A stretch of DNA of 64,000 bases from an uncultured Acidobacteriota bacterium (GCA_963843885.1 CAWJMJ010000015.1:127822-191821), one strand, 5' to 3'. Positions 4,379 through 64,000 are shown, counted from the stretch's first letter. The notes: generated by a model not told the origin, from the letters alone. Numbers and translations: made by a program.

Positions 4379-4380
4379 AA

Positions 4381-4399
4381 CCCCCGAGCGCGGCGGGGG
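4381..4399 (-). terminator. Weak intrinsic-terminator-like hairpin after mreB
   Basis: Minus-strand RNA: CCCCCG-ccgcgcu-CGGGGG followed by UUUGCU. The stem is 6 GC pairs and the U tract is short. Confidence 0.3.
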
Positions 4400-4489
4400 A
4401 ATGTCGGAACGCGCCCGCGCAGGCGGCGCTAGGCGCCGCGGGCGCGGCTGCCCTGGCCCGGCCCCTTCACGACCGCGGGCGGCGGGCCG

Positions 4490-5515
4490 CTACGACGCGC
4501 ACGCGACACGGCGCAGCAAGGCCATGTCGCTGAGCATCCGCCCCGCGCCTTGCACGACCGAGGTCAGCGGATCGGCGGCCACCTGGACGGGCACGCCGGT
4601 TTCCTGACGCAGCCGCTCGTCGAGCCGGGTCAGCAGGGCTCCGCCGCCGGTGAGGACCATGCCCTGCCCGTAGATGTCAGCGGCGATTTCAGGCGGCACG
4701 CACTCGAGCGCGTTCCTGACCGCGGTGCAGATGGCACGCACCGGATCGGCCAGGGCCTCGCGCACTTCGGTCTCGGTGATGTCGACGATGCGCGGGCGGC
4801 CTTCCCGCATGCAGCGGCCGCGCACTTCCATCTCGCGCACGGGCTCGCCGGCGCAGGCCGAACCGAGGCGGATCTTCACGTCCTCGGCAGTGCGCTCGCC
4901 GATGAGCAGGCCGTGGCGGCGACGCATGAAGCTGATGATGGCGTCGTCCATGTGGTTGCCGGCGATCCGGATGGCGCTCGTGTAGACCATGCCGCCAAGC
5001 GAGATGACGGCGATGTCGGTGGTGCCGCCGCCGATGTCGACGACCATGCTGCCGGTGGCCTCCGTGACCGGCAGGCCGGCGCCGATGGCCGCGGCCATCG
5101 GCTCCTCCACCAGGTGCACTTCGCTGGCCCGGGCGCGGTAGGCGCTGTCGACCACGGCGCGGCGTTCCACCTGGGTGATGCTCGAGGGGATGCCGATGAC
5201 CAGGCGCGTGCGCCGCCAGGTGACGCTGCCCTGTGCCTTGCGGATCAGGTGGCTGAGCAACCGCTCGGCGGCTTCGAAGTCGGCGATGACGCCGTCGCGC
5301 AGCGGCCGGATGGTGGTGATGTTGGCCGGGGTGCGGCCGAGCATGGCATGCGCCGCGTGGCCGACCGCTTCGGTCTTGTCGCTCTGGGTGTTGATGGCGA
5401 CAATCGAGGGTTCGTCGACGACGATGCCCCGCCCCAAGGCGAAGACCACCGTGTTGGCGGTACCGAGATCCACGGCGAAATCGCGGGCGGCGAAGGGCAG
5501 AACGTTCAGCAGCAT
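4490..5515 (-). CDS. mreB: Rod-shape-determining actin homologue MreB
   Basis: ORF 4490..5644 trimmed to ATG 5515 (MLLNVLPFAARDFAVDLGTANTVVFALGRGIVVDEPS...MVVDIGGGTTDIAVISLGG...GMVLTGGGALL). These are the classic MreB/actin-fold phosphate and adenosine motifs. Confidence 0.9.
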   Translation of the reverse strand: MLLNVLPFAARDFAVDLGTANTVVFALGRGIVVDEPSIVAINTQSDKTEAVGHAAHAMLGRTPANITTIRPLRDGVIADFEAAERLLSHLIRKAQGSVTWRRTRLVIGIPSSITQVERRAVVDSAYRARASEVHLVEEPMAAAIGAGLPVTEATGSMVVDIGGGTTDIAVISLGGMVYTSAIRIAGNHMDDAIISFMRRRHGLLIGERTAEDVKIRLGSACAGEPVREMEVRGRCMREGRPRIVDITETEVREALADPVRAICTAVRNALECVPPEIAADIYGQGMVLTGGGALLTRLDERLRQETGVPVQVAADPLTSVVQGAGRMLSDMALLRRVACAS

Positions 5516-5691
5516 GGCTCGGTTACTCGGGGGAATGGGGCGCGATGGTAGCGGCGGTGGTGGCAAGTGACGTGCCGGAACGGCTGACCCGGCACATTTT
5601 CCGCGTCGCCCCGTGCAATCATGGGTGAAGTCGGCCAGTTCCAACGGTTTTCACCGGGTTGGCGCCATGTCGGGCGGCCGGTCTCGACGGG

Positions 5692-5697
5692 TAGGAT
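5692..5697 (+). promoter_or_regulatory. Possible -10 box TAGGAT for gdh (about 95-nt leader)
   Basis: This is the only TAnnnT on the plus strand in the mreB/gdh divergent region. gdh itself has an AGGAG Shine-Dalgarno 9 nt upstream of its ATG. Confidence 0.25.
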
Positions 5698-5725
5698 TGA
5701 CGGCGGCCAGACAATTTTGTCGAAA

Positions 5726-5745
5726 AGTGTCAACCGGCTGACACT
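5726..5745. promoter_or_regulatory. Perfect 7-bp inverted repeat AGTGTCA-n6-TGACACT in the gdh leader (operator or RNA hairpin candidate)
   Basis: Read directly. It lies about 50 nt upstream of gdh ATG 5794. A second small palindrome, GACAA-tt-TTGTC, lies at 5710-5721. Confidence 0.25.
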
Positions 5746-5793
5746 GCCCGGCTGGCCGGCCGAGCGGCCGGCGACTGCTCAGGAGCCTAACAG

Positions 5794-7212
5794 ATGAGTG
5801 CCACGACCGAGAGCTTCTTTGATCAGGTCACCCGCTATTTCGACGACGCGGCCCGGTTCACCAGTTACCCGGAGGGGCTGCTGAGCCAGATCCGGTGCTG
5901 CAACAGCATCTACCGCTTCGATTTCCCGCTGCGCCGCGCCGACGGCCGGATCGAGGTGATCCGGGCCTGGCGGGTCGAGCACAGCCATCACAAGCTGCCG
6001 ACCAAAGGCGGCATCCGCTTCGCGCCTGACGTGCACGAGGAAGAAGTGATGGCGCTGGCCGCGCTCATGACCTACAAGTGCTCGATTGTCGACGTGCCCT
6101 ACGGCGGCGCCAAGGGCGGCATCAAGATCGACCCGAAGGACTACACGGTCGAGGAACTCGAGCGCATCACCCGGCGCTACACCCACGAACTGGTGAAGAA
6201 GAGCTTCATCGGTCCGGGCATCGACGTGCCGGCGCCCGACTACGGCACCGGCGAACGCGAGATGGCGTGGATCGCCGACACCTATTCGGCGCTCCACCCG
6301 GGCGACCTCGACGCCATCGGCTGCGTCACCGGCAAGCCGCTGGCCCAGGGCGGCGTGAACGGCCGGCGCGAGGCCACCGGGCGCGGCCTGTTCTTCGCCA
6401 TCCGCGAAGCGTGCGCGCAGGCCGACGACATGAAGAAGCTCGGCCTGCCCCCCGGCCTCGAGGGCAAACGGGTGGTCGTGCAGGGGCTCGGCAACGTCGG
6501 CTATCACGCCGCCAAGTTCTGCCGGGAGGCCGGCGCGCTGATTGTCGCCATCGCCGAACGCGAAGGCGCCATCGCCAACCCGAACGGGCTGCACGAAGAC
6601 GAGGTGTTCCAGCACCGGAAAAACGGCGGCTCGATCCTCACCTTCCCCGGGGCCACCCCGCTGGCCGATACCGCCGCCGCGCTCGAGATGGCGTGCGACA
6701 TCCTCATCCCGGCCGCCCTCGAAAACCAGTTCACCGCCGACAACGCGCCGCGCGTGCAGGCGAAGATCATCCTGGAAGGCGCCAACGGCCCGACCACGCC
6801 CGACGCCGATCCCATCTTCCGGCAGAAAGGCGTGCTGGTCATTCCCGACATCTACGCCAACGCCGGCGGCGTCACCGTGTCGTACTTCGAGTGGTTGAAG
6901 AACCTGTCGCACGTGCGCTTCGGGCGTCTGTCGAAGCGCCACGAGGAAGCCAACGAGCGGCAGATGCTCAAGGCCATCGAGCTGGCCACCGGCAAGCCGT
7001 TCACCGACGAGCAGCGCGCCGATCTGGCCAAGGGCCCCTCCGAACTCGACCTCGTGAACTCAGGGCTCGAGGAGACGATGATCAACGCCTACCACGGCCT
7101 GCGCGACACGCGGGCGTCGCACCCCGAGGTGCCCGACCTGCGCACCGCCGCGTTCCTGACCGCCATCCACAAGGTGGCGCGCAGCTACATGGAGCTGGGT
7201 ATCTTCCCGTAA
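5794..7212 (+). CDS. gdh: Glutamate dehydrogenase (Glu/Leu/Phe/Val dehydrogenase family)
   Basis: Intact 472-aa [47 protein letters not shown] contains the catalytic Lys region. [12 protein letters not shown] is the Rossmann motif. Confidence 0.9.
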
Positions 7213-7233
7213 GCGGCCACGGCGGCCGCTTAC
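7209..7233. terminator. 10-bp perfect hairpin between convergent gdh and the S9 peptidase gene
   Basis: GTAAGCGGCC-acggc-GGCCGCTTAC. The gdh stop TAA lies inside the stem. There is no U tract on either strand. Confidence 0.45.
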
Positions 7234-7235
7234 GC

Positions 7236-9506
7236 TCAGCGCCGCGGAGCCTTGAGGTAGCGGTCGAAGTACTGCGTGAGCTTGCGGAAGAAGTAGACGG
7301 CGTAGTGCTCGCGCGCCGACCAGGCGTGGGTGGCCGCCGGCGCGGTGGCGAGGTCGAAGTCCTGGCCGAGCAGCATGAGCCGTTCGGCCAGGGCCAGGGT
7401 GGTGCGGAAGGGCACCACGTCGTCCATCATGCCGTGGATGATGAGCAGGTGGTCGCGCAGGTCGGCCCCCAGTTCCTGCGCCGAGCCGCGGACGAAGGCC
7501 TCGGGGTGGGTATCGGGCGCGCGCGTGATGGCCACGTCGTCGGGACCGAAGGCGTAGGGGTCGGTGGCCGGGGCGCCGGCCACGCCGACGGCGAACATGC
7601 CCGGGCGCTTGAGCAGGGCGTAGGCGCTCAGCAGCCCGCCGTAGCTGCTGCCGAAGATGCCCATGCGTTGTCCGTCCACGTAGGGCAACGCCTTCAGCCC
7701 GTCGACGACGGCCTGCAGGTCGTCGAGATCCTTGCCGCCGTAGTCCATCAGGAACGCCTCGCGGAAGGCGCGCCCGTAGCCGACGCTGCCGCGCACGTCC
7801 ACCTGCACCACGATGTAGCCCTGCTGCACCAGGAACTGCTGCAGCGTGCCGTTCACGCCGCCCCACCGGTTGCGCACGGTGTTCGAGTAGATCGGCCCGA
7901 AGATCACCGGATGCCGCTTGCTGCGGTCGAGGTCGGCCGGTTCCTGAATGCGGGCGTGCACCGTGAAGCCGTCGACGCGGTTGGTGAACGTCTGGTAGCG
8001 CGCGCGCACCCAGCGCTGCGCCGCGAACTCCGGCGGTGGCGAGGTGGTGACCCGGGTCAGCATGCTGCCCGGCCGGGCCTCCCCCACCAGCAGTTCGGGC
8101 GGGGTGACGTCGTCGGACCACAACGACGCGAGCGTGCGGCCGTCGGGTGACAGCACCGGGACGTGGACCCCGGGCCGCGACGTCAGGGCCACCGGAGCGG
8201 TGTCGTCCGGGCCGAGCCGGTAGACGTGCCGCTCGTACGGACTTCGGCCCGTGCCCGTGAAGTAGAGCGCCCTGGTCGCAGCGTGGGCGATGACGGTAGC
8301 GGCGCCACGCTCGCCGGCCACGTCCCAGGTGCCGGGGGTGAGCGCGACCGGCGCCGGCCGGACGGCATCGGGGTCGATGGCGAAAAGTTGGTCGCGCTCG
8401 CCGAGGTCGGCGACCACGACGATGCGCGTGCCGTCCGGGTGCCAGCGGGCCACGTAAGCGGGATAGATGCGCGAGTCGCGGCGGTCGTGCCAGACGACCT
8501 TCGGCGTGGCCGTGCCGGGCTCGACGACGTAGAGCCAGCGCTCGGCGCCGGTGTCCGACACCTGATCGATGAGCAGCCGCCCCGACGGCGACCACTGGAA
8601 GTCGCTGATGCCACGCCGTCCCGGCGCCTCCAGGGCGACCGGCTCGATCGTGCCGGTGTCGACGCGCAGCAGCGACAGCGTCCGCCGCTCGTTCTCGTCG
8701 CCGGGATAGCCGCGGCGCAGCGCGTTCTCGACCGTCTCGGGGCCGAGGTAATACGGAAACGGCACCGCCCGCAGGTGCCGGCGGTCCGAGGCATGGAACG
8801 CGATCGTCCGGCCGTCGGGCGACCACGCGTAAGGCAGCCAGTCGGCGCCCCACACGCCGGTGCCGACCTCGCGATCGGGTTTGTTGTAGCTGCCGAGCGG
8901 CACCGTGCCGATGCCCGCGACGCCGATCGTGGTCAGGCGCGCGGCCGTGGCCGCGCCGCGAGTCCACAGCCACAAGTCGCCGTCGCGCAGGAACGTGATG
9001 CGGGCGCCGTCGGGCGAGAGCGCCACGTCCGACACGTCCTCCCCCACCGGCAGACGCTCGGGCGCCCCGCCGCTGGCGGCGACGCGGAAGAGGCGGCCGC
9101 GATGCACGACCAGCAGCGCGCCGTCGGGCGTCCACAGCAGTTCGCTGGCGCCGGTGCGGGCGCGCGCGGCCACGCGGGCGGCGAGGTCGGCGGTGCGGTT
9201 CCCCGCTGGCAGCGCGGGCGGGGGCTCGACGCGCTGGAAGTCGGTGACGCGGCGCAGGCCGGTGCCGTCGGCGGCCGCCGTCCACACGTCGCGGTAGGGC
9301 CAGCCGCCGTCATTCCACAGGAACGCGACGCGGCTGCTGTCGGGCGCCCAGGTGATTGCCGTCGGGGCCGTGCCAATCAGGCTCGGCAGAGAGGCCACGC
9401 GTTCGACGGTCAGGACCGGCGCCGTCGCGGACTGGCTCGAGCCCGCGGCCGGCAGTGCCAGCAGGCCGGGAATCAACAGCAGGAGGGGAAGGGACACGCG
9501 CGCCAT
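7236..9506 (-). CDS. Secreted S9-family serine peptidase (beta-propeller plus alpha/beta-hydrolase)
   Basis: ORF 7236..9827 trimmed to ATG 9506 (MARVSLPLLLLIPGLLALPAAGSS signal). Repeated SPDG propeller motifs are present. The C-terminal domain carries GIFGSSYGG (nucleophile elbow) and HGMMDDVV. Confidence 0.85.
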   Translation of the reverse strand: MARVSLPLLLLIPGLLALPAAGSSQSATAPVLTVERVASLPSLIGTAPTAITWAPDSSRVAFLWNDGGWPYRDVWTAAADGTGLRRVTDFQRVEPPPALPAGNRTADLAARVAARARTGASELLWTPDGALLVVHRGRLFRVAASGGAPERLPVGEDVSDVALSPDGARITFLRDGDLWLWTRGAATAARLTTIGVAGIGTVPLGSYNKPDREVGTGVWGADWLPYAWSPDGRTIAFHASDRRHLRAVPFPYYLGPETVENALRRGYPGDENERRTLSLLRVDTGTIEPVALEAPGRRGISDFQWSPSGRLLIDQVSDTGAERWLYVVEPGTATPKVVWHDRRDSRIYPAYVARWHPDGTRIVVVADLGERDQLFAIDPDAVRPAPVALTPGTWDVAGERGAATVIAHAATRALYFTGTGRSPYERHVYRLGPDDTAPVALTSRPGVHVPVLSPDGRTLASLWSDDVTPPELLVGEARPGSMLTRVTTSPPPEFAAQRWVRARYQTFTNRVDGFTVHARIQEPADLDRSKRHPVIFGPIYSNTVRNRWGGVNGTLQQFLVQQGYIVVQVDVRGSVGYGRAFREAFLMDYGGKDLDDLQAVVDGLKALPYVDGQRMGIFGSSYGGLLSAYALLKRPGMFAVGVAGAPATDPYAFGPDDVAITRAPDTHPEAFVRGSAQELGADLRDHLLIIHGMMDDVVPFRTTLALAERLMLLGQDFDLATAPAATHAWSAREHYAVYFFRKLTQYFDRYLKAPRR

Positions 9507-16951: not shown

Positions 16952-17865
16952 TCAGCGGCCCGACCAGGCCGCGGCGATGCGGCCGGCCTCGGCCAGCGCC
17001 GCTTCGTCCTCGGGCCGCGTCCCGTGCGAGCGGCGGCTGCTGTCGAAATAGGCGGTGACGACCAGCGGGGCGCGGCCCGGCGGCCACGCCACCGCGACGT
17101 CGTTGACTTTGTCGGTCATCGCCGCGGTTTGCGCCGTGCCGGTCTTGTCGCCGGCGCGCCAGCCGGCCGGCAGGCCGGCCCGGATGCGCTTGGTTCCAGT
17201 GGTCGTCGCCACCATCCAGCCGGCGAGCCGCTCGCGGGCCGGCGCCGTCAGCACGTCACTGGTGAGCAACCGCCCGACCAGGCGAGCCATGGCCAGCGGT
17301 GTCGTGGTGTCGCGCGGATCGCCAGGAAGCACCAGGTTCAAGTCGGGCTCCAGCCGGTCGAGACGGGTGGTGCCGTCACCGAGCGCGCGGAGCGCCGCCG
17401 TGAAGGCCGCGGGGCCACCCAGACGCGTCAGGAGCAGATTGGCGGCGGTGTTGTCGCTGGTCGTCTGCGCCGCTTCGGCGAGCGCGGCCACGGTCATGCC
17501 GCCCTCGGCCACGTGCTGGGAGGTGACCGGGGCATACGACAGCAGGTCGGCCCGCGTGAACGCCAGCCGTTCGTCGAGACGCAGCCGGCCGGCGCCGGCC
17601 TCGCGGAGCACCACCGCCGCCAGCGGCAGCTTGAAGGTCGAGCACATGGCGAAGCGCTCGTCGAGCCGGTGCCCGGTCGAGCGGCCGGTGCCGGTATCGA
17701 GCATGGCCACGCCGAGCCGTCCGCCGGCGCGCGCTTCGAGCGCGGCCAGCGCCGCCGCCGGAGCCTGGCCCCGCGCCGCGGCCTCGGGGGCCTGCCCCCG
17801 CGCCGCCACCGGTGGCACGAGCAGCCCCGCCGTGACGGCGAGGATCTGCCGGCGCGTGAGGGACA

Positions 17866-17866
<1 letters not shown>
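16952..17866 (-). CDS. bla: Class A beta-lactamase with twin-arginine signal peptide
   Basis: ORF 16952..17998 trimmed to ATG 17866 ([16 protein letters not shown]). S-T-F-K (CSTFK), S-D-N (TSDNTAAN), the Glu of the omega loop (RLEPDLN) and K-T-G (DKTGT) are all present. The ATG overlaps the typA stop (TAATG). Confidence 0.85.
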
Positions 17867-19728
<1,862 letters not shown>

Positions 19729-19734
19729 ACATCC

Positions 19735-52467: not shown

Positions 52468-53986
52468 CTACTGCTGCGCGCCGGGGCGCACCCGGCGCAG
52501 ATCGGCGGCGGTGAGGTCGAGCTCGGTGATGGGAATGCGCTCGATGTTGGTGAAACCGGCGCCCGCCAGACCGGACATGAACTTGTCGGCGTCGCCCACG
52601 AGCACCACCGACAACTGCGCCGGCTTCAGCCAGGCGCGGGCCACGCGCTGCACGTCGTCGACCGTGACCGTGCGCACGCGCTCGGGGTAGGCCGGCAGGT
52701 CGTCCAGCGGCAGCTCGTAGAACAACTGATTGAGCACCCGCGTGGCGATGGCGTCGGGCGACTCGACCGACAGCGGGAAGCTGCCAGCCAGGAAGTCCTG
52801 TGCGCCTTCGAGTTCGCCCTCGTAGACCCGCTCGCGCTGCAGGCGCGCGAACTCATCGACGACCGTGCGCAGGGCCTCGACGGTGCCCTCGGTGCGCGTG
52901 TCGGTCTCGGCCACCACGGCCCCCGAGTCACTTGTAGGCGTCGAGGTCGGCGGAGGCGCCGTAGGTCAGGGCTTTCTGTGAGCGCAGCACCTGCTGCAGG
53001 CGGTTGCCGCCTTCGCCACCCAGAATCTTGACCGCCTGGTCGAGCGGCAGGTGGTCGGGATGGCGGCGCGGGATCGCCAGGTTGCCGGCGCGGATCTCGG
53101 TCTGCACCGAGCCGGGCTTGTCGATCGACGACCAGGCGGCGCACGGGCGGCGGCGGCTCGATCGGCAGGTAGGGCGGCACCGTGCCCTTGACCCACCCGC
53201 CGAACACCCGCTCCACCTGCTTGAACGCTTCGTCGGGCGTGATGTCGCCGACCAGCGCGATGAAGGCGTTGTTCGGCACGAACCAGGTCTTGTGGAAGTC
53301 GACGAAGTCCTCGTCGCGTCAAGCGTGGCCAGCGACTCGGCGTGCCGCCCGACGGCATGCCGTAGGGATGGAAGCCGAAGATCAGCCGGTCGATGACCTG
53401 CGAGGCGACGGTATCGGGATCGTCGGCCGCGACCGTGAGCGACGACACGGCCTGCGAGCGCTGCCGCTCAATCTCTTCCGCCGCGAAGGCCGGGTGCCGC
53501 ACGACGTCGGCCATCAGGTCGAGCGCCGCGCCCAGACCGTCCTTCATGCTGACCGCGTTGACGAAGCTCAGGTCGGACCCGGCGCCCGGTGCCCATCAGG
53601 CCGCCCATGAAGTCGATCTCTTCGGCGACCTGTGCCGGCCGACCGCGTGGCCGTGCCCTGGTCGAGCAGCGCCGCCGTCAGCATGCGCCAGGCCGGCCTT
53701 GCCCTTGGGGTCCTGCGCCGCGCCGGCGCGCACCAGCAGCCGGGCGCTGACAATCGGCTGTTCGTTCTGGCTGCACGACCACGACCTGCAGGCCGTTGGC
53801 GAGCGTGCGAATCTCGTAGGGCGGGAACTTGACCGGCTTGGCGGCAGCGGCCGGGGCGGACGCTCGGAAGGCCAGCGCAGGGCGTCGGCGCCGCGCTGAC
53901 CGGCCGAGCGACCGACGCACGCCACCATCACGACGATGGCGGCGACGAGCGACGACTGCGGTGACGCGAAACGCTCGGCGGCTCAT
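52468..53986 (-). pseudogene. M16-family peptidase, second (non-HxxEH) subunit, many frame changes
   Basis: Fragments lie in at least 5 ORFs. Examples: KPVKFPPYEIRTLANGLQVVVVQ; NEQPIVSARLLVRAGAAQDPKGKAGLA; MKDGLGAALDLMADVVRHPAFAAEEIERQRSQ...FGFHPYG; NNAFIALVGDITPDEAFKQVERVFGGW; the C-terminal 149 aa are intact (52468..52917). The ATG overlaps the upstream stop (ATGA). Confidence 0.75.
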
Positions 53987-55384
53987 GGGCGGGTTCCCGC
54001 GGCCTTGGGCAGCACGTGCATGACCAGGCGGGACTCGGGCACGAAGTAGGTCTTGGCCACGCGCTGCACGTCGGCGCGCGTCATGTTCTGGAAGATGTCG
54101 AACTCGCCGTCGGCGGTCTTGATGTCGTCGTGCAGGACTTCGGCGTGCGCCAGCGACGCCGGCCTTGTCCTGCGACCGACTCGCGGCCGAGGATGTAGTC
54201 GCGCGCGAACTGGTTCTTGGCGCGCTGCAGCTCGCGCTCGGTGATGCCGCTGCGGCCGCAGCTTGTCGAGCTCGGCGATCAGCGCCTTCTCCACCTCGTC
54301 GGGCGATCTGCCCGGGATTGACGATGCGCGACCGTGTAGAAGAGGTTCGGGTGCTCGATCAGGTTGCCGCTGCCGAAGGCGGCCACGCGCCAGCCGCTTC
54401 TCGTAGACCAGCTTGCGATAGATGCGCGAGCTGTTGCCGTCGGAGAGCACCTTGGCGAGCACGTGCAGCGGATACGAGTCGGGGTGGCCGTCGTAGGTGA
54501 TGTGGTAGCGCCACGATCACCGCCGGCAGCGGCCACGGCTCTTCGAGCGTGACCCGGCGTTCCTCGGTCTGCTTGGGCTCTTCCGGGATGTCGCGCGGCA
54601 CCGTGCCCGGTCCGCCTCGGGATACGCGCCGATAGTAGCGCGTGACCAGGTCGGTCGTCTCGGCCACGTCGAAGTCGCCGACGATCACCATGGTGGCGTT
54701 CGCCGGGCACGTAGTAGGTGTCGAAGAAGTCGCGGACGTCGTCGATGGTGGCGGCATCGAGGTCGGCCATGCTGCCGATCGACCGGGTGCTTGTAGGGAT
54801 GGACGGTGAAGGCGTGCCGGTAGAGCAGCTCGTTGAGGCTGCCGAACGGCTGGTTGTCGACGCGCATGCGCCGCTCCTCCTTCACCACTTCGCGCTCGCT
54901 GATGAAGGTCTGCTCGTCGATGCGCAGCGAGCCCATACGGTCGGCTTCCATCCACAGCACCAGCGGCAGGTACTGGGACGGGACGGTGTGCCAGTAGACG
55001 GTGGCGTCTTCGTTGGTGTAGGCGTTGGCGCTGTCCGCCGACCGACGACACGATCGAGGTGTGCTGCTCCGGCTCGACGTTCTTCGAGCCCTTGAACATC
55101 ATGTGCTCGAAGAGGTGCGCGAAGCCGGTGCGGCCCGGCTGCTCGTTCTTCGAGCCGACGTGGTACCAGAGTCTGGACGTGCACGATCGGCGTGGAGCTG
55201 GTCGAGGTGCAGGATGACGGTGAGGCCGTTCGGCGAGCGTGAAGCGCTGGTACTCGAGCTTCGGCGGAGCCACCGCCGCGCTGAGCGGCGTCCATAGGGC
55301 CGCCAGCGCGAGTCGGCCGGCGCATACGGCCAGGAGCGCCCGGCGCCGGACGCGGTCAACGACGGGGGCGACAAACATGTTCAT
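53983..55384 (-). pseudogene. M16-family zinc peptidase (HxxEH subunit), many frame changes
   Basis: Fragments: MNMFVAPVVDRVRRRALLAV...; YHVGSKNEQPGRTGFAHLFEHMMFKGSKN (HxxEH); LWMEADRMGSLRIDEQTFISEREVVKEERRMRVDNQPFG; ANATMVIVGDFDVAETTDLVTRYY; LAKVLSDGNSSRIYRKLVYEKRLA; the C-terminus is ...VAKTYFVPESRLVMHVLPK. They are spread over at least 6 ORFs. Confidence 0.8.
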
Positions 55385-55395
55385 GGGTGCTTCGA

Positions 55396-56455
55396 TTATG
55401 GCACGGGGGTGCCGGCGTCCCGGGCGGCTCCCGCGGCCGCGCTTCGAGCGCCGCGAGCCGCCGTCGAGGTCGAGCAGATGGCGCCGGTCTCGGGCAGCCG
55501 TCCGACCAGCACGGCGGCCTTGCGCCATTCTCGGTTGTCGATGGCCGGACAGCCCGAGATGAACCTGCCCGCGGCGACCGAGTTGGTGATGCCGGTCTGG
55601 CCGGTCGCGATCGACGCGGTCGCCGATGGTGATGTGGCCGGCGACGCCGACCTGGCCGGCCAGCACCACCGCGTCGCCGACCGTCGTGCTGCCCGAGATG
55701 CCGACTTGCGCGGCCAGCAGCACGCTCGCGCCCGAGCACCACGCCGTGGGCGATCTGCACCAGGTTGTCGATCTTGGTGCCCGGCCTTGATGCGCGTCTC
55801 GCCCACCGCCGGCCGGTCGATGGTGGTGTTGGCGCCAATCTCGACGTCGTCCTCGATCACCACCGGGCCCGTCTGCGGGATCTTCTCGTGCGGCGCCGTC
55901 GGCATGGTGCGCGAAGCCGAAGCCGTCGGCGCCGATGACGGCGCCGTTCTGCACCACCACGCGATCGCCGAGACGGCAGCGCTCGCGGATCGAGACATGT
56001 CCGTGCACCAGGCAGTCGTCGCCGATGACGGCTTCCGGCCCGACCACCGCGTGCGCCTCGATGACCGTGCGCGCCCCGAGGCGCGCGCCGCGGCCGATGA
56101 CGGCCAGTGGCCCGATGCCGACGCCCTCGCCGAGCACGACGTCGTCCCCGAGGACGGCCGTGGGATGCACGCCCACCGGCAACACCGACGGCGGGGCCAG
56201 GGCCTGCGCGGCCCGGGCGAAGGCCAGATACGGGTTGTCGACGCGCAGCACCGCGCACGGCGCGGGCGGACCGCTGGCGCCGAGGATGACCGCCGACGCC
56301 TTGGTGCCGGCCACGCCGGCGGCGTACTTCTGGTTGGCCAGGAACGTGACATCGCCGGGGCCGGCCGTATCGAGCGCGGCCACGCGCGCAACGGCGAGGG
56401 TGCCGTCGCCTTCCAGGCGAGCGCCGATGCGCTCGGCCAGCTGCTGCAGGGTCAC
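55396..56455 (-). pseudogene. lpxD: UDP-3-O-acylglucosamine N-acyltransferase, several frame changes
   Basis: The N-terminal ~190 aa are intact ([18 protein letters not shown]...hexapeptide repeats...[10 protein letters not shown]). Then [88 protein letters not shown] and [11 protein letters not shown]...REWRKAAVL lie in different frames. The 3' end is approximate. Confidence 0.8.
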
Positions 56456-56468: not shown

Positions 56469-57155
56469 TCACGCAGGCCGAACCCCCAGCCGCTCCACGA
56501 ACGTCGTCAGGTGGCGCAGACCCAGACGTTCGGCCGCGTCGTGCAGGCGGTCTTCCCGGGCGGGCGAGGCCAGGGCCAGGGCTGCGCGCACGTCGGCCAT
56601 GTGCGGGTTGGCGGCCACGCGCCACTGGACGCGATGCAGGGCTTGCTGCGCGCCGCGCCAGGCCAGCAGGTGACCGACGGTCGTGAAGGTAAAAAAGTAG
56701 CCGAGCAGGTTCGGGCCGGGCACGATCACCAGCGCAATCGACACGACCAGGCCGAGCAGGTGGACCATGAACCAGCGCAGGTGGCGTTCGGAATCGCGCT
56801 TCAGACCCTGCCGCAGGATGGTCATCGCCTGATCGTGCGGCAGATCGGCGGGCACTTCGAGGACGGCCTCGGTGGCCGTGCGCAGGTGCCAGAGCAGGCG
56901 CTGTTCGGCGGCGCGCTCGACAATCCAGCGCAGCAACTTGCCGCGCCAGCGGGCCACCATCCCGACGGTGGCCTCGTCGACCGGCTCGTGGCACCGGTGC
57001 CGTTCGGCCTCGGCCTCACGCAGCATCTCCGACAGCCGGCGCCGCTGGCGGCTCAGCCAGCCCTCGCCCTCGACGGGCGGTTCCTCGACGCCCTCGACCG
57101 GCTCGAAGTACGGCTCGTAGCGGTCGGGGCCGATGGGAATCAGGAACACGTGCAT
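56469..57155 (-). CDS. Hypothetical membrane protein (2 predicted TM helices)
   Basis: ORF 56469..57305 trimmed to ATG 57155 (MHVFLIPIGPDRYEPYF...). The hydrophobic pair is WFMVHLLGLVVSIALVIVPGPNLLGYFFTFTTVGHLLAW. Family not recognised. Confidence 0.5.
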   Translation of the reverse strand: MHVFLIPIGPDRYEPYFEPVEGVEEPPVEGEGWLSRQRRRLSEMLREAEAERHRCHEPVDEATVGMVARWRGKLLRWIVERAAEQRLLWHLRTATEAVLEVPADLPHDQAMTILRQGLKRDSERHLRWFMVHLLGLVVSIALVIVPGPNLLGYFFTFTTVGHLLAWRGAQQALHRVQWRVAANPHMADVRAALALASPAREDRLHDAAERLGLRHLTTFVERLGVRPA

Positions 57156-57219
57156 GATGGTGTGACGCCGCGCGAGGGGCCGGAGTTCGCGTCCCTCTGC
57201 ACCGCTATGGTTCGTGCCG

Positions 57220-58128
57220 CTACGGTCCCGGCGCCTTCGGCACGCGCCGCGGAGCGCGGCTGAGCGCCACCGGAACGACGGGCTTGCCCGCCCGCTCCCA
57301 GGCACCGGTGATGAACGCGGCCGCGGTGGCCGTCGAGTCGGCGATGCGCTGGTCGACGACCGGCAGCGCCTCGACCCTGAACGCCTCGTAGAAGGTGTCG
57401 TCGTAGAACTCCCGCCCGGCCGCCGCCTTGCGGTCGGCGGCCAGCACCGGCGCCGCCAGGCGATTGCTGTCGAGCAGGACCTGGAACATGGCGCCGCGCG
57501 GATCCGTGACCGGCGCCCGCGCCGCCGGCGCCACCCGCAACTGCGTGGCGTAGCGCTCGAACAGATCCGTTTCGAAGCGTCCGTGCGCGCCCGGCTGGCC
57601 GGTCAATTGCCCGTCGTAGTTCTTGACCGCATGCAGCGGCACGTGGCCGTCGCTGACGTAGTGGGCCAGCACGGCGGCGTAGAGCACGATGTTGTCGAGC
57701 GCATACGGCGACGGCGACGGGCGCTTGAGCGACGCGAACTCGCGCGCCAGCTTGCCGTAGAACTCGGCGGTGCGCCACGGCAGAGTGCCTTCGCGCTCGA
57801 CCACGTCCCGGCCGAACTTTTCCACGGCCAGGTCGTAGTCCCGCGGCAGCGCCGCGAACGGATAGGCGCCGTAGGGCTCGGCGTCGAAATCGAGGAAGTG
57901 GTTGGGCGGCTCGCTGTCCCAGCCGACGTTGCGCCACAGGTCGGGATCGACCGACCGCTCGACGATGAACTGCTGCCGGGCCGCAAACAGCGGCCGCAGT
58001 TCCGCGGGCAGGAGGGCGATCATGCCGGCGGCGATGTGCTTGTGCGCGGCAAAGCCCCAGCCCGCGACCGGCGCCGGCAGCGTGACCAGCAACGCCAGGG
58101 CGATCGTCCAGGGAGCTGCCGTTCGCAT
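57220..58128 (-). CDS. Secreted S1/P1-nuclease / zinc phospholipase-C-like protein
   Basis: The signal MRTAAPWTIALALLVTLPAPVAG is followed by WGFAAHKHIA (mature N-terminal Trp plus His, as in S1/P1 nucleases). HYVSDGHVPLH is a metal motif. ATG 58128 is preferred over 58137 because of the -10 box. Confidence 0.55.
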   Translation of the reverse strand: MRTAAPWTIALALLVTLPAPVAGWGFAAHKHIAAGMIALLPAELRPLFAARQQFIVERSVDPDLWRNVGWDSEPPNHFLDFDAEPYGAYPFAALPRDYDLAVEKFGRDVVEREGTLPWRTAEFYGKLAREFASLKRPSPSPYALDNIVLYAAVLAHYVSDGHVPLHAVKNYDGQLTGQPGAHGRFETDLFERYATQLRVAPAARAPVTDPRGAMFQVLLDSNRLAAPVLAADRKAAAGREFYDDTFYEAFRVEALPVVDQRIADSTATAAAFITGAWERAGKPVVPVALSRAPRRVPKAPGP

Positions 58129-58135
58129 GCCTGTC

Positions 58136-58141
58136 ATTCTA
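58136..58141 (-). promoter_or_regulatory. Candidate -10 box TAGAAT, 7 nt upstream of ATG 58128
   Basis: Minus strand reads TAGAAT-gacaggc-ATG. The hexamer overlaps the alternative ATG 58137. Confidence 0.4.
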
Positions 58142-58155
58142 TCGAGGCGGAGCCG

Positions 58156-59094
58156 TCACGGCACGTCGATGACCACGCCGGCCCAGCCGTCGCGGCCCGA
58201 GGGGCCCGAGTAGCGGGCGTCGTTCACGAGCACCGTGTGTCCGGATGCCGTCGGCGTCACGACGAAGAACGGGAAGCGCGACCAGCCGAGGAACTGCCGA
58301 CCCAGTTCGGTGGCAGCCGCGGCCCGGGCCGCCGGATGGCCGGCGTTCTTGATCACGCCGTAGCCGGCCGGACGGAAATGCGGCGCCGGCGCGAAGACCA
58401 GGAATCCCTTCTCGTAGCGATCGCCGAGATCGACGAGCACCTCGCGACGGAACGGGTTGACCGGTACCGGCGTGACCATGAAGCGCGCGTGGCCCTGACC
58501 GGCCCGCGTCAGGCCGGCGCCGACCTCGGCTCGCGCCCACAGGTTCGAACCGTACATGAGCGCCACATAGAGCGTGGCGGCCGCCAGCGTGACCCGGGCG
58601 GCGCGTGTGCCGGCGGCAGCGACGCGCGCGCGCACCGCCCACGCCACGCCGAGGCCGAGCAGCAGGTAGAGCCAGGGATCGACGATGTAGAGCGCGTCGC
58701 CGTAGAACCAGCGCTGCGAGAACGGCATCAGCAGGCGGACGCCGTAGCTGTTCATGTAGTCGAGCAGGGGATGCGACCAGGTGCCGAGCGCGGCCAGCCA
58801 CAGCACCTGCATCGGCGCCACCGGCCCGGGCGCCGGGCGGCGGCGCTGCCGCACGAACCGGTCGTAGGCCATGACCAGGCCGGTGAGAGCCAGCGGCAGC
58901 AGCGCCATCGCCAGCGGCCCATGCGTCCAGCCGCGCCGGAAAGACATCTGCAACGTGCCGGTGGCCAGCACGGCGATGTCGATATCGGGCGCATTGGCCG
59001 CCAGCGCCAGCGTGGTCAAGGCCAGGGGCGTGCGCCGCTTCAATCCGGCGTGGCCCATGGCCAGGCCGGTGAGCGTGTGACAGAGCGGGTCCAT
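58156..59094 (-). CDS. Membrane-bound metal-dependent hydrolase (YdjM/DUF457-like)
   Basis: [17 protein letters not shown]...GWTHGPL...[20 protein letters not shown] is the typical DUF457 N-terminal half. Confidence 0.7.
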
Positions 59095-59104
59095 GGGTGG
59101 CGCG

Positions 59105-60826
59105 TTATCCGGAGGGGGCCAGGTCGCGCAGGTCCTTGCGCAGCACCTTCCCCACTGGCGACTTGGGGAGGTCGTCGCGGAAGCGGACGACCCGCGGCAC
59201 TTTGTAGGCGGTCAGCGACTCGCGGCAGAAGGCGCGCACCGCGGCTTCGGTCAGCGCCGGATCGCGGCGCACGACAAAGGCGCACACCACTTCGCCCGCA
59301 CATCTCGTCGGGGGTGCCGACGACCGCCACCTCGGCGACCCCGGGATGCGCGGCAATCACCGCCTCGACTTCGTTCGGGTAGACGTTGAAGCCGCTGACC
59401 AGGATCATGTCCTTCTTGCGGTCGACGATGTACAGATAAGTGTCTTCGTCGGCCGTGGCGCACGTCGCCGGTCGACAGCCAGCCGTCCCGCAGCACGCGC
59501 GCCGTTTCGTCGGGCCGCTGCCAATAGCCGGCCATCACCTGCGGCCCGCGCACCAGCAGCTCGCCGGGTTGGCCCATCGGCCACGTCGTGGCCGTCGCTC
59601 GTCGACGATGCGGCACGTCGGTGCCCGGCACCGGCACGCCGATCGAGTCGCGTCTTGTTGCGATGGAAGGGCATGAGCGCACCACCGGCGAGGTCTCGGT
59701 CAGGCCGTAGCCTTGATAGATCGGCGTCCGGGTCATCGCTTCCCAGCGCTCGCCCACCACCGGCACCAGCGCCATGCCGCCGGCCACCGTGCCCTTGAGC
59801 GTGAAGCCGGCCTGCTGCTGGAACCACGGCTCGTGCATCAACCCGGCAAAGAGCGTGTTCACGCCGGTGAGCCAGGTGGCCTGTTCGCTGGTCAGCGCCT
59901 GTCTTCAAGTTGGTCAACGGGCGCGGGCTGGGCAGGAGGATGTTGCGGCCGCCGAACACGAAGAACACCATCAGGTTCGCCGTGAACGCGAAGATATGGT
60001 ACAGCGGCAGCGCGGTAGATCACCGTCTCCTGTCCGGCAATCACGCCCGGCTTCCACACCTCGATGCACTGGACGATGTTGGCGAGCAGGTTGCGCTGCG
60101 GTGAGCACCGCGCCCTTGCGACGCCGGTCGTGCCGCCGGTGTACTGCAGCGCGGCGATGCGGTCGTGGCCCAGGCCTTCGAGATAGCGCCGCGGATCGAT
60201 GCCGGCGGCGAGCGCGCGCAGAGCCCTGGGCGATGGCGCGGTCGAAGGTGGTGTAGGCGAAGGTCGCCGCCGGCACCTGTCTTCTTCACGTAACGCTGCG
60301 CCGCGCGCACGACCGTCCGCTTCAGCCACGGCAACAGGTCGGCGATGGTGACCAGCACCACCGTGCGGATGGCCGTCCTGGCCAGCACCTTGGCGACCTT
60401 GTCGGCAAACAGGTCGATGACCACCAGCCCGGTGGCGCCGCTGTCGACGAACTGGTGCTCCATCTCGGGCGCGGTGTAGAGCGGGTTGGTGTTGACCATC
60501 ACCACCCCGGCCTTGAGCGCGCCGAAGACCACGACGGGATAGGCCAGGCAGTTGGGCATCTGCACGGCCACGCGGTCACCCGGGCCGAAGCCGGCGACCT
60601 CGCGCAGGTAGACGGCAAAGGCATCCGACAGCCGGTCGACCTCGGCGAAGGTGAGCGCGCCGCGCGTGCCGTTGGGCAGCAGCAGCGTGAACGCCTCCTG
60701 CTGCGCGTAGGTGGCGGCCGACTCCCGCACCAGCGCGGCCACCGTGGGCCAGCGGAGCGGCGGCAGGTCCTGCGCCGTCGCGGGAGCGTAGAAGCGCGTC
60801 CAGGGTCGGGTGGCCAGTGACGTCAT
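59105..60826 (-). pseudogene. fadD: Long-chain-fatty-acid--CoA ligase; 5' third intact, 3' two-thirds with many frame changes
   Basis: The N-terminal ~185 aa are in one frame (MTSLATRPWTRFYAP...VAVQMPNCLAYPVVVFGALKAGVVMVNTNPLYTAPEMEHQF...). After about 60275, fragments lie in at least 5 ORFs: LQYTGGTTGVAKG-like, [72 protein letters not shown]. Confidence 0.8.
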
Positions 60827-60846
60827 GCGTGCGCCAACTGGGACGC

Positions 60847-60852
60847 ATTGTA
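60847..60852 (-). promoter_or_regulatory. Possible -10 box TACAAT, 20 nt upstream of fadD ATG
   Basis: Minus strand reads TACAAT-n20-ATG. The box is conserved in the mirrored copy (63596-63601, plus strand). Confidence 0.3.
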
Positions 60853-60932
60853 ATGGCGACCGGCTTCCCGACCGAAACACTCCACGAGCACTCCGTGAGA
60901 ACAGGGCATCAACCTTGCAAACGCTACGTCCA

Positions 60933-61809
60933 ATGACCCGACTGTTTCGCGGCGCCGCCGGCGCCGCTCTCCTCCTGGGTGCCGCCGCCTGCAGCAAGTC
61001 GCCCGAATCCCCCACCTCGCCCTCGGTCCCCGGCCCTTCGTCAGTGACCCTGACCGCCATTGGCGCCAGCGATGCCCTGGGCGTCGGCTCGGCGGTGGTG
61101 TGCGCGCCCTTCGACCTGCAGTGCACCAACGGCACCGGCTGGGTGCAGGTGCTGTTTCGGCGGCTGCAGGCCAACGGCACGGCTACGCTGGCCAATCTGG
61201 GCGTGCCCGGCTCGGTGTTGAGCCCCGCCATCGAGACCCTGGGCCGACGCGTCGGTCGCACCTATCCGGGTAATTTCCTGACCAATCAGGCACCTTTACA
61301 TCCACCGCCAGCACGGTGGTGACGGTGTTCGCCGGCGGCAACGACGCCAACACCATCGGCCAGGTGGTGCAGGCGCAGCAGGCCGGCGACGACCCGCGAG
61401 CCTTCATCGATCAGCAGGTCGCTCAATGGGGCGACGACATGGCCGCGCTGCTGCGCGTCGTGCGCCAGCGGGCGCCGACTACCAAGATCGTGCTCCTCAA
61501 CCTGCCCAACCTCGCCGGCGCGCCCTACCTGTCGCGCAACTCGGCGCTCGAGCGCGGCATCATGCAGCGCATCGCGGTGGGGATGAGCGAGCGCGTCAAC
61601 GCGCTGGTCGCTCCAAACGTCTTCGTCGTGGACCTGATGTGCGACGCGCGTATCCTCGAGCCGGCCAGCTTCTCGAGCGACGGCTTCCATCCGAGCGATC
61701 GCGGCTACGCGCTCATGGCCGACCTGGCCTACACCGCCGTGACGAGCGCCACCTATCCCGCGCCCGCGGCCGATTGCGCGCTGAAACGCGTCGCGCCGAT
61801 CTACTCGAG
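60933..61809 (+). pseudogene. SGNH/GDSL-family hydrolase lipoprotein, two 1-nt indels in this copy
   Basis: MTRLFRGAAGAALLLGAAAC (lipobox) ...VTLTAIGASDALGVG (GDS-like block)... then a frame change at T-run 61295-61297. Next comes VVTVFAGGNDAN ... FSSDGFHPSDRGYALMA (DxxH block). The expected stop (..APIY*) is lost through an extra C near 61807. Confidence 0.7.
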
Positions 61810-61862
61810 GCCGATCCGAACCTCAACCCGGCGCCAAGCGCCTGCCCTGCCCGTCTCGCCGC

Positions 61863-62253
61863 CTACGGCACCACGACGACGACATCCGCCGACGGCGCGC
61901 CGCTGCCGGCGCTGGTGATGGCTCGCGCCCGCACGTAGTAGACGCCCGGCGGCACGTCCGAAACCACGAACGACGGGCTGGCGCCGATGGTGGCGGCGCC
62001 GATGTTGACGAGGCCAGGGGCCGAGCCGGCTTCGAGCACGTAGCCGAGGACCGGACCCGCCGGCGCGTTCCATGACAGCGTCAGCGTCGAGCCGCTCACG
62101 CTCGATGTGAGATGCGTCGGCGCGGCCGGCAGCGCATCCGACGCGCCGATGGTGAAGAACACTTCCCCGCTGGGCGCACTTGTGCCACACGCGTTGGTGG
62201 CCTGCACGCGCGCATGGAAGCTCCCCGCCGGGACCGTGCCGCTGATCGACGTG
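61863..62253 (-). CDS. 3' fragment of a fibronectin-type-III-repeat protein gene, cut off at the foldback loop
   Basis: ISGTVPAGSFHARVQATNACGTSAPSGEVFFTIG, then PAAPTHLTSSVSGSTLTLSWNAPAGPVLGYVLEAGSAPG...PPGVYYVRARAITSAGSGAPSADVVVVVP* (Fn3 hallmarks W, Y.V.V, G.S). The upstream part of the gene is missing because the sequence folds back at 62201-62253. Confidence 0.6.
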
Positions 62254-63700
62254 CCACCAACGCGTGTGGCACAAGTGCGCCCAGCGGGGAAGTGTTCTTC
62301 ACCATCGGCGCGTCGGATGCGCTGGGGGCCGCGCCGACGCATCTCGCATCAACGTAGCAGCTCGACGCTGACGCTGTCATGGAACGCGCCGGCGGGTCCA
62401 GTTGCCTCGCTACGTGCTCGAAGCCGGCTCGGCCCCTGGCCTCGTCGACTTTGGCACCGCCCACCATCGGCGCCAGCCCATCGTTCGTGGTTTCGGACGT
62501 GCCGCCGGGCGTCTACTACGTCGGGCGCGAGCCATCACCAGCGCCGGCAGCGGCGCGCCGTCGGCGGATGTCGTCGTCGTGGTGCCGTAGGCGGGGAGAC
62601 GGGCAGGGCAGGCGCTTGGCGCCGGGTTGAGGTTCGGATCGGCCTCAGTAATCGGCGCGACGCGTTTCAGCGCGCAATCGGCCGCGGGCGCGGGATAGGT
62701 GGCGCTCGTCACCGCGGTGTAGGCCAGGTCGGCCATGAGCGCGTAGCCGCGATCGCTCGGATGGAAGCCGTCGCTCGAGAAGCTGGCCGGCTCGAGGATA
62801 CGCGCGTCGCACATCAGGTCCACGACGAAGACGTTTGGAGCGACCAGCGCGTTGACGCGCTCGCTCATCCCCACCGCGATGCGCTGCATGATGCCGCGCT
62901 CGAGCGCCGAGTGCGCGACAGGTAGGGCGCGCCGGCGAGTTAGGGCAGGTTGAGGAGCACGATCTTGGTAGTCGGCGCCGGCTGGCGCACGACGCGCAGC
63001 AGCGCGGCCATGTCGTCGCCCCATTGAGCGACCTGTGATCGATGAAGGCTCGCGGTCGTCGCCCGGCCTGCTGCGCCTGCACCACCTGGCCGATGGCGTT
63101 GGCGTCGTTGCCGCCGGCAAACACCTCACCACCGTGCTGGCGGTGGATGTAAAAGGTGCCTGATTGGTCAGGAAATTACCCGGATAGGTGCGACCGACGC
63201 GTCGCCCAGGTGCTCGATGGCGGGGCTCAAGACCGAGCCCGGCACGCCCAGATTGGTCAGCGTAGCCGTGCCGTTCGCTTGCAGCCGCCGAAAGAGCACC
63301 TGCACCCAGCCGGTGCCGTTGGTGCACTGCAGGTCGAAGGGCGCGCACACCACCGCCGGAACCGACGGCCAGGCCATCGCAAGGACAATGGCGGTCAGGG
63401 TCACCGACGAAGGGCCGGGGCCCGAGGGCGAGGTGGGGGATTCGGGCGACTTGCTGCAGGCGGCGGCAGCCAGGAGGAGGGCGGCGCCGGCGGCGCCGCG
63501 AAACAGTCGGGTGATTGGCTGTAGCTTCTGCAAGGTTGATGCCCTGATTCTCACGGAGTGCTCGTGGACTCGTTCGGTCGGGAAGCCGGTCCGCATACAA
63601 TGCGTCCCAGTTGGCGCACGCATGACGTCACTGGCCACCAACCCTGGACGCGCTTCTACGCTCCGCGACGGCGCAGGACCTGCCGCCGCTCCACTGGCCC
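62254..63700. repeat. Right arm of the foldback (mirror copy with substitutions and indels; no intact gene)
   Basis: It mirrors the Fn3 3' end (62254-62590), the SGNH gene (about 62645-63515, minus; ATG replaced by ATC at 63513-63515) and the fadD promoter plus first ~26 codons (ATG 63622, plus). About 1 in 10 positions differ in a hand-aligned 120-nt sample. Confidence 0.9.
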
Positions 63701-64000
63701 ATAAATGTAGTCATTTTGACGAGTGATCAAAATCAAAAAAAGCGTATCGGGAAGTTTAAATCAGCACATAAATAGGTGCTCAATTGACGAAAATCAGTTT
63801 TTTTCGGTTTAGTAAATGTTTTCTTTATCTTCTAGGTAATTACCCTCCGAGTGTTTAAAAAAGCCATCACTCAATACGGAGTGGCAGGCATCTCACTTTC
63901 TAAACGAATGATTGTTCCTCGCTAGAGCGAAAAAATTTTTCGATCCCGCTAGAGCAAAAATTTTAATTAATCGATTCAAAAATGTTGTTAAGTGCTGTCC
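63701..64000. other. AT-rich (~35% GC) non-coding segment of foreign composition
   Basis: Hand count: 104 G+C in 300 nt, against 71 in the preceding 100 nt. No ORF is present. It contains a 7-bp IR ATTTTGA/TCAAAAT (63713-63719 / 63727-63733) and a direct repeat CGCTAGAGC(G)A5-6T4-5 at 63920 and 63947. Confidence 0.85.

Follow-up and report, generated by a model that had tools for sequence, protein, structure and literature searches.

What does it mean when a bacterial sequence turns back on itself in the middle of a gene and the same 1.45 kb then follows a second time in reverse? In this work we have analysed a stretch of 64,000 nucleotides (the window) from a soil bacterium of the Vicinamibacterales (Acidobacteriota), near the end of which such a structure occurs. 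The original prediction took it for an assembly or chimeric-read foldback whose second pass was left unpolished, and this view is supported by the related genomes, by the changes private to one arm, by the noise of the contig and by the anatomy of the repeat. We consider it very probable that one foldback chimeric long read, or very few of them, were built into a low-coverage metagenome contig and that the genome itself lacks the inverted duplication.

A repeat search and a global alignment showed that positions 60745-62200 (1456 nt) are the reverse complement of 62254-63701 (1448 nt), so the predicted arm ends, 60746 and 63700, were correct within 1 nt, and both methods returned the predicted 53-nt loop at 62201-62253. 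The perfect complementarity claimed for 62151-62200 and 62254-62303 is also real, and the perfect stretch actually covers 62130-62200. Overall the arms are about 95% identical, with 48 substitutions and 21 indels of 1-2 bases between them; relative to the left arm, the right arm has 14 deletions and 7 insertions, each arm thus having indels that the other lacks, as had been noticed. The differences are unevenly spread, with one in the 262 nt at 61539-61800 and about 7% elsewhere in the arms. A match of 1.45 kb at 95% identity cannot be chance, and besides this inverted pair there are no repeats of at least 60 nt in the whole window. The features of the region are the following.

59117-60827, minus strand: fadD (AMP-binding, long-chain acyl-CoA ligase), a noise patch adjoining the foldback
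60745-62200, unstranded: left arm in native orientation, with the fadD 5' end, an SGNH/GDSL lipoprotein gene and the 3' end of an Fn3 gene
60827-60825, minus strand: ATG of fadD, within the left arm
60933 to about 61808, plus strand: SGNH/GDSL lipoprotein gene of the left arm
Stop at 61863-61865, minus strand: last ~112 codons of the Fn3 gene, left arm
62201-62253, minus strand: loop of 53 nt without a second copy, native Fn3 coding sequence containing ISGTVPAGSFHARVQ, with the turn-back at 62253/62254
62254-63701, unstranded: right arm, reverse-complement copy of 60745-62200 at roughly single-read quality
63702-64000, unstranded: tail of 299 nt with 35% GC

Pfam recognised Lipase_GDSL_2, fn3 and AMP-binding domains on the left arm. 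The translation of the loop continues the left-arm reading frame on the minus strand and is homologous to the closest related genome (TAIGGTVPGGTFFVRV); it is within the penultimate Fn3 domain that the sequence turns back. The inverted repeat is neighboured by YdjM and fadD on one side and by the tail on the other. The claim that no transposase, integrase or terminal inverted repeats flank the structure is borne out by the content of the arms, flanks and tail, in which we saw none of these; the arms hold only fadD, SGNH and Fn3 sequence. We also looked for ONT and PacBio adapter remnants and found none in the loop or at 63701/63702, where local-alignment scores were those of chance. A simple concatenation of the "missed adapter" or "template then complement" type is therefore unsupported, and a foldback at the level of the molecule fits better.

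The related genomes tell what should follow the turn-back point. The closest one (L002, 88% nucleotide identity) is collinear with the window from 57000 to 62248 and continues beyond it into the body of a gene of about 1,030 amino acids with PQQ_2 and fn3 domains (PQQ-propeller/Fn3), which extends ~2.7 kb further. This is the comparison that the original prediction had proposed, and it agrees with the claim that the Fn3 gene lacks its 5' half because the sequence turns back inside the gene, since the relatives carry the full gene and are collinear through that point. The Fn3 gene is also present at this place in two other genomes, L004 and L013. Positions 62253-63701 align to L002 as well (6887-8346), in the opposite orientation and with an identity of 84.2%, against 88% for the left side. 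A genomic duplication might be expected in independent genomes, but in the 12 relatives that match best the collinear alignment is confined to the left side, and no inverted repeats of at least 60 nt were found in the five relatives searched (L002, L003, L004, L009 and L013). The protein collection holds no second sequence of the same species besides the source, the next best match being 85% identical, and among the GTDB species representatives the best match has 89% amino-acid identity, with no match at 100%. In the nanopore loci of two relatives (L027 and L041) we found no contig-end foldbacks, a sample too small to mean anything.

Could the assembly have read through the covalently closed hairpin telomere of a linear replicon? 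Such telomeres, known from Borrelia, the linear chromosome of Agrobacterium and N15-type phages, give exactly this topology in long-read assemblies: the assembly turns back and the terminal sequence is duplicated inversely. Here, however, the turn is not at a replicon end but in the interior of a conserved Fn3 gene that runs on for ~2.7 kb in the relatives; the loop is 53 nt of asymmetric, ordinary coding sequence and not a telomere-resolvase site, and the inverted copy is followed by unrelated, foreign DNA and not by the end of the sequence. A non-exhaustive look at the window revealed no telomere resolvase nearby. We regard this explanation as exceedingly improbable.

The polarity of the differences between the arms was assigned against four outgroups. 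Of the 84 alignment columns that show a difference, approximately 65 (50 substitution and 15 indel columns) are private to the right arm, mostly at sites which are identical across all outgroups, and 12 to the left arm. Several details of the original prediction were found again in the arm alignment: the 12 differences within 60821-60940, the ATG of the SGNH gene (60933-60935) that reads ATC in the right arm (63513-63515), and the TTT at 61295-61297 opposite AAAA at 63151-63154. The right-arm genes are indeed broken, with six frameshifts in SGNH and about three in the Fn3 part (one and none, respectively, in the left arm), or about nine across the arm. The left arm had been described as near-intact, but this did not hold. 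It lacks one T at 61295-61297, which shifts the SGNH frame, and an extra C at 61806 changes the end of this gene from TAC TGA to TAC TCG AGG and destroys the stop. The right arm keeps the TGA but misses 2 nt just upstream. At 60920-60929 the left arm deviates at four sites at which the right arm equals L002. As both arms are damaged at conserved sites, they look like independent noisy readings of one template and not like a copy and its decaying descendant.

The differences are essentially unselected. Of 38 coding substitutions, 16 are synonymous, where 11.2 would be expected under random placement (randomisation test, P = 0.056), a slight and non-significant excess. G<->C transversions make up 15 of 36 right-private substitutions (42%), transitions account for ~38% of all substitutions, deletions are twice as numerous as insertions (14 against 7), and the changes are often clustered. 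A rough calculation puts this spectrum close to random replacement given 70% GC. It is unlike natural decay; bacterial mutations in nature are rich in transitions and tend to turn GC into AT. Purifying selection in a diverged strain was rejected as the main source of the right arm, since only 42% of the coding substitutions are synonymous and frameshifts are many, although the arm could contain a minor strain-level component, for which the four sites at 60920-60929 are a candidate.

Is it possible, as the original prediction allowed in its alternative of a decaying duplication, that the duplication is old, that it borders a horizontally acquired AT-rich element and that its right copy is decaying as a pseudogene region? 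The arms have diverged by ~5%, most of the changes lie in the right arm and all of its genes are broken, AT-rich DNA abuts it, the patchy identity could represent gene-conversion tracts, and the slight synonymous excess points the same way. However, such a history should leave a natural mutation pattern and one functional copy, whereas the transversions dominate over the few transitions and the supposedly functional left copy is broken too. It is also implausible that a kilobase palindrome would survive until 4-5% of neutral divergence had accumulated. The damage, moreover, extends beyond the repeat, as the following paragraph describes, and neither mobile-element genes nor a plasmid or phage match accompany the structure. 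Taken as a whole, we find an old duplication very improbable.

In fadD there are about 13-14 frameshifts between 59297 and 60277, outside the repeat; tblastn splits this gene into four frame segments, yet a frameshift-aware alignment that allows 14 frameshifts gives 85% amino-acid identity to the protein of a relative (L003). We counted 9 frameshifts in a second gene, at 52.45-54.0 kb, and 20 in a third, at 53.95-56.45 kb, and the housekeeping gene typA/bipA (17.9-19.7 kb) is split across frames, while the genes lying between the noise patches have none. With fadD, typA and two more genes all broken in a similar way, the frame-breaking changes here appear to be technical. The patches are of kilobase scale, with ~1% indel errors, and contain indels only. 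The right arm has in addition mismatches to L002 that exceed those of the equivalent left-arm bins by 0.5-5 percentage points, so it is rawer than the worst consensus of the contig, which is consistent with support from a single read.

The GC content of the tail is 35% as opposed to 70% in the window, its sequence bears no relation to anything else in the window, and the composition switches abruptly, exactly at the end of the right arm (63701/63702). On the minus strand an ORF that starts past the end of the window contributes its final 35 codons, and a terminator-like hairpin (63868-63883) comes after them. The tail had no blastn match in plasmids, phages and E. coli genomes, nor in the fetched loci and the rest of the window; exact scans with 28-mers and 20-mers in metagenome contigs, and with 20-mers in viral contigs, found nothing, and the 35-aa ORF end matched neither plasmids (tblastn) nor any of 1.84 billion representative proteins (phmmer). 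The sole Rfam match, Ref68, was below threshold (18 bits, where the gathering score is 44) and was treated as chance. Most likely the tail is another chimeric piece, or DNA of a different organism that was joined on by mistake. In the other reading a real kilobase duplication, its arms 53 nt apart, would have formed where the chromosome meets a 35% GC element acquired horizontally, the divergence of the right arm being partly or wholly technical. We think this very unlikely. A mobile element would be expected to bring a transposase or integrase with terminal inverted repeats, none of which we saw in the arms, flanks or tail, and the tail has no plasmid or phage match.

The noise asymmetry alone does not prove an artefact. 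In a real and perfect palindrome reads map equally well to both arms, and a polisher may for this reason leave one of them uncorrected. Perhaps, then, replication template switching or break repair produced a recent fold-back inversion with near-identical arms, of which the right one remained unpolished? The structure does exist in the deposited sequence, and, to judge from the 262-nt near-perfect patch, the right arm reaches consensus quality in places. Uniform raw-read noise is insufficient to explain this patch; a foldback read would need partial polishing, and a real duplication could invoke gene conversion. The probable source contig is 198,304 nt long, so the foldback may be internal and not at a contig end, and the contig may extend past the structure. 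On the other hand, reads spanning the loop of a real duplication would have polished both arms. The inversion would also truncate the ~1,030-aa gene that is intact in the relatives, it ends exactly at unrelated 35% GC sequence, and it was seen in no relative searched. Bacteria are expected not to keep a near-perfect 1.45-kb palindrome with so short a spacer (53 nt) stably; this knowledge comes from E. coli and not from the present lineage, and it concerns SbcCD cleavage and replication slippage. Real bacterial palindromes, the substrates of SbcCD, share with our structure the two kilobase arms and the short spacer, but every read supports them, their two arms are equally good in sequence quality, and they usually arise at short inverted repeats or mobile elements. 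Here the second arm is of about raw-read quality, mobile-element features are missing and the relatives lack the structure. Finally, foldback reads are a documented and frequent artefact (PMC12870357). A recent inversion thus appears distinctly unlikely.

How well does the structure agree with known foldback artefacts? In long reads these have symmetric arms, the second segment lying on the other strand no more than 200 bp away and usually with no adapter in between, and they make up to 0.61% of ONT genomic-DNA reads (PMC12870357). The Breakinator tool recognises them by a breakpoint within 10% of the read midpoint at a site which other reads span unbroken (PMC12870357). In our case the copy resumes on the opposite strand at the partner of 62200, 53 nt back, the loop is native in-frame Fn3 coding sequence with no adapter, and the arms of 1456 and 1448 nt, the right one stopping at 63701, are as a symmetric read from near 60745 would give. 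The likeness covers the nearly equal arms, which would make a palindrome about the midpoint, and the lack of an adapter between the segments. Artefact reads of this kind are known to tangle assembly graphs; the difference is that here the foldback is fixed in an assembled contig and known from the contig, not from reads, and that a 35% GC piece follows the second arm. The palindromic chimeras of phi29/MDA (Pacasus, Warris et al., PMC6218980) are similar in their inverted join to the self-complement with a short native spacer, but they come from whole-genome amplification, and nothing here indicates an amplified library.

We return to the foldback read, whose course may be pictured as follows. 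The native order would be fadD, the SGNH lipase gene and the 3' end of the ~1,030-aa PQQ-propeller/Fn3 gene. At 62253, within the penultimate Fn3 domain, the read would switch to the opposite strand 53 nt back and read the same 1.45 kb again as the reverse complement, up to 63701. The first pass would have been corrected to consensus quality with few residual errors, whereas the second, for want of other supporting reads, would keep roughly raw-read accuracy (~3.3% substitutions, ~1.4% indels). The remainder of the Fn3 gene would be missing from the contig and not deleted from the genome. The collinear relatives, the foldback anatomy, the asymmetric and unselected differences and the patchy contig noise are what we observed; from these we infer a long-read platform and the support of a single read, and also the origin of the molecule, which may be a snap-back during library preparation or a template switch, the routes that PMC12870357 proposes. 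Raw R9.4 nanopore errors are transition-rich (PMC8486125), and the G<->C-rich, transition-poor noise of the right arm differs from this profile.

What does this mean for the organism? If the structure is a foldback read, it has no biological import: no gene is truncated in the bacterium, and neither a palindrome-tolerant bacterium nor a foreign island has been demonstrated. Its value lies in quality control, as the deposited contig seems to hold a foldback mis-join followed by DNA of other composition, and the indel patches that break fadD, typA and other genes are a concern of the same kind. An annotation pipeline would report pseudogenes at this place, together with an SGNH lipase in duplicate and an Fn3 protein cut short, and the tail could be misread as horizontal transfer. 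Should the structure nevertheless be real, we would have one of the rare cases in which a bacterial chromosome keeps a long palindrome. Next to a 35% GC element it would imply an unusual tolerance of long palindromes, perhaps through weak SbcCD-type surveillance, and the acquisition of DNA from a very distant donor.

The inverted duplication near the end of the window is very probably the product of a foldback read. A repeat search and global alignment showed that 62254-63701 is the reverse complement of 60745-62200, with a unique stretch of 53 nt (62201-62253) between the two. The left arm measures 1456 nt and the right arm 1448 nt, and they are about 95% identical, with 48 substitutions and 21 short indels between them; taking the left arm as reference, the right has 14 deletions and 7 insertions. 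This is the sole repeat of at least 60 nt within the 64-kb window. The original prediction had described the structure well: the perfect core adjoining the loop was confirmed, 12 differences do fall within 60821-60940, the SGNH start codon is indeed changed from ATG to ATC at 63513-15, the arms differ in homopolymer length (TTT vs AAAA), and the proposed arm ends lie at most 1 nt from those of the alignment. Pfam scans and an ORF map placed the following genes in and beside the left arm.

58156-59094, minus strand: YdjM-family membrane hydrolase
about 59117-60827, minus strand: fadD, AMP-binding acyl-CoA ligase
60933 to about 61808, plus strand: GDSL/SGNH lipoprotein gene
stop at 61863-65, minus strand: 3' end (~129 codons) of an Fn3-domain gene

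The loop itself is in-frame Fn3 coding sequence, so that the turn-back interrupts a domain midway and coincides with no recognisable site. Next to the YdjM gene, 57220-58137 (minus strand) encodes an intact, secreted-looking protein of 305 aa with a signal-like N-terminus and a WGFAAHKHIA motif; no Pfam family matched it at E <= 0.001, and relatives keep it beside YdjM.

How does this region look in related genomes? Scanning species-representative genomes with the window's YdjM protein gave 55 loci, most of them in metagenome-assembled genomes of Acidobacteriota/Vicinamibacterales. A protein 100% identical to this YdjM is recorded (NCBI and ENA, one contig); the next closest protein is only 85% identical, which leaves the species with no second genome for comparison. 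The closest locus, L002 (CAWIBL010000012.1), comes from a Microflora Danica nanopore genome and is collinear with window positions 57000-62248 at 88% nucleotide identity. Past the turn-back point the Fn3 gene runs on in L002 for another ~2.7 kb; its product of ~1,030 aa combines a PQQ-type propeller with Fn3 domains at the C-terminus. By contrast, window positions 62253-63701 re-align to L002 6887-8346 in the opposite orientation at only 84% identity. The Fn3 gene stands at the same position in L004 and L013. Thus the absent 5' part of this gene does follow the equivalent of 62253 in relatives, which the original prediction had put forward as a check, and no inverted repeat of at least 60 nt was present in the five relatives examined. 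Read-through of a hairpin telomere would be another source of such a turn, and we regard it as the least credible of the accounts considered here. L002 carries two tandem paralogues of ~1,000 aa (PQQ-propeller and Fn3; 1077-7489) upstream of its SGNH gene. Its own fadD, SGNH and Fn3 genes contain frameshifts too, which indicates that such errors are common in nanopore metagenome-assembled genomes of this kind. Three further loci, L011, L018 and L024 (CAYUAX010000005.1, CAZNOC010000099.1 and CAZUGF010000004.1), belong to third-party-annotated MAG records titled 'uncultured Bifidobacteriaceae'. Their YdjM homologues, 56-66% identical to that of the window, were found among the Vicinamibacterales matches, and the YdjM-fadD-SGNH locus of the window has a collinear counterpart in L011; the taxonomic labels look wrong.

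Foldback artefacts of long reads have been defined by Heinz, Meyerson and Li, whose definition includes a breakpoint near the read midpoint (PMC12870357). Library preparation is their probable origin; they account for as much as 0.61% of ONT reads of genomic DNA and can tangle assembly graphs, and in fewer than half of them are the two halves separated by over 11 bp of sequence that does not align, such as adapter (PMC12870357). The window resembles them in its strand switch 53 nt back, its arms of equal length and its lack of adapter, local alignment to ONT and PacBio adapter sequences having given chance scores only; in these testable features its structure agrees with that definition. Palindromic chimeras from whole-genome amplification, described with Pacasus (PMC6218980), have the same topology.

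To determine which arm had changed, both were aligned with four outgroups. Changes seen in the right arm alone occupied 50 substitution columns and 15 indel columns, mostly where all outgroups agree, those in the left arm alone occupied 12 substitution columns, and 7 columns were ambiguous. The left arm is nevertheless not free of damage: it lacks one T at 61295-97, which shifts the SGNH frame, through an added C at 61806, TAC TGA (the SGNH stop as kept by the right arm and L002) has become TAC TCG AGG, and within 60920-29 the right arm equals L002 at four sites where the left arm differs. We therefore rejected the idea that one arm served as template for the other; each arm keeps the conserved state where the other is damaged, and the two are independent, imperfect readings of one sequence.

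The nature of the differences is also telling. Read in the correct frames, the arms differ by 38 coding substitutions, 16 of them synonymous, compared with 11.2 expected under random placement (P = 0.056); with purifying selection the synonymous share should be about three quarters or higher, and selection has thus left essentially no mark. Frameshift-aware protein-to-DNA alignment found one frameshift in the left SGNH copy and six in the right; in the Fn3 part, the left arm had none of the window's own and the right arm about three. Transitions account for only ~38% of all arm substitutions, G<->C transversions for 15 of 36 right-private substitutions, and changes are often clustered (GC to CG, GG to CC). 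Mutation in bacteria naturally favours transitions and runs from GC towards AT; the mix seen here, by a rough estimate, is about what random replacement would give in sequence of 70% GC. Since raw R9.4 nanopore errors are transition-rich (PMC8486125) and the arm substitutions are unlike that profile, we claim no platform. The differences are unevenly spread, with 1 in 262 nt at 61539-61800 vs ~7% elsewhere. This needs partial polishing or, if the arms were an old, decaying duplication beside a foreign element, gene conversion; we hold such a history to be very improbable.

Are there signs of poor polishing elsewhere in the contig? Frameshifts were counted by frameshift-aware alignment to proteins of relatives assembled with short-read assemblers.

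59117-60827 (about), minus strand, fadD: 14 frameshifts, of which 13 lie at 59297-60277, beyond the repeat
58156-59094, minus strand, YdjM: 0
57220-58137, minus strand, 305-aa gene: 0
51.3-52.5 kb, gene: 0
52.45-54.0 kb, minus strand, gene: 9
53.95-56.45 kb, minus strand, gene: 20

The last two genes are adjacent and form a patch at 52900-55900, while no frameshifts occur in the genes on its two sides, at 51.3-52.5 kb and 56.5-59.1 kb. GC content at third codon positions, scanned for changes of coding phase, revealed a further patch at 17.9-19.7 kb. It falls in typA/bipA (minus strand, 17860-19730), a housekeeping GTPase gene that has EFG_C in ORF 18122-18571 and BipA_C in an overlapping ORF, 17869-18291, in a different frame, with ~7 phase changes in 1.9 kb, which we read as uncorrected indel errors. 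The fadD product matches its homologue at 85% identity when frameshifts are permitted, so the frameshifts are errors and not the marks of decaying pseudogenes. The patches measure kilobases and have sharp edges, as though polishing coverage had been uneven. Could the duplication then be real and recent, with technical noise? In principle, polishing might correct only one arm of a genuine palindrome; we consider a real duplication improbable. The patches are indel-only, and the mismatch rate of the fadD patch to L002 is not raised; the right arm exceeds the corresponding bins of the left arm by 0.5 to 5 percentage points in mismatches and has more indels as well, which places its quality below the worst consensus sequence of the contig. 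Support by a single foldback read, which we infer, would give such quality.

Directly after 63701 comes an abrupt change to 299 nt with a GC content of 35% (63702-64000); GC per 1-kb bin is 67-77% throughout the window except in the last bin. The minus strand of the tail holds the final 35 codons of an ORF that comes in from past the window end, then a terminator-like hairpin (63868-63883). The ORF end reads …FALARNNHSFRK followed by the stop, and the motif GCTCTAGCG occurs twice in the tail. Nothing similar to it was found in plasmids, phages, E. coli genomes, metagenome and viral contigs (by exact k-mers), the relatives' loci, the rest of the window or, for the 35-aa ORF end, 1.84 billion representative proteins, and the sole Rfam match was far below threshold. 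The simplest reading of the tail is another chimeric segment or a mis-join to DNA from a different organism; a genuine insertion of foreign DNA is less likely. The foldback may lie inside a longer contig, with AT-rich sequence continuing past the window end. The original observation was thus an accurate one, and what it describes is a defect of assembly whose biological interest is low.
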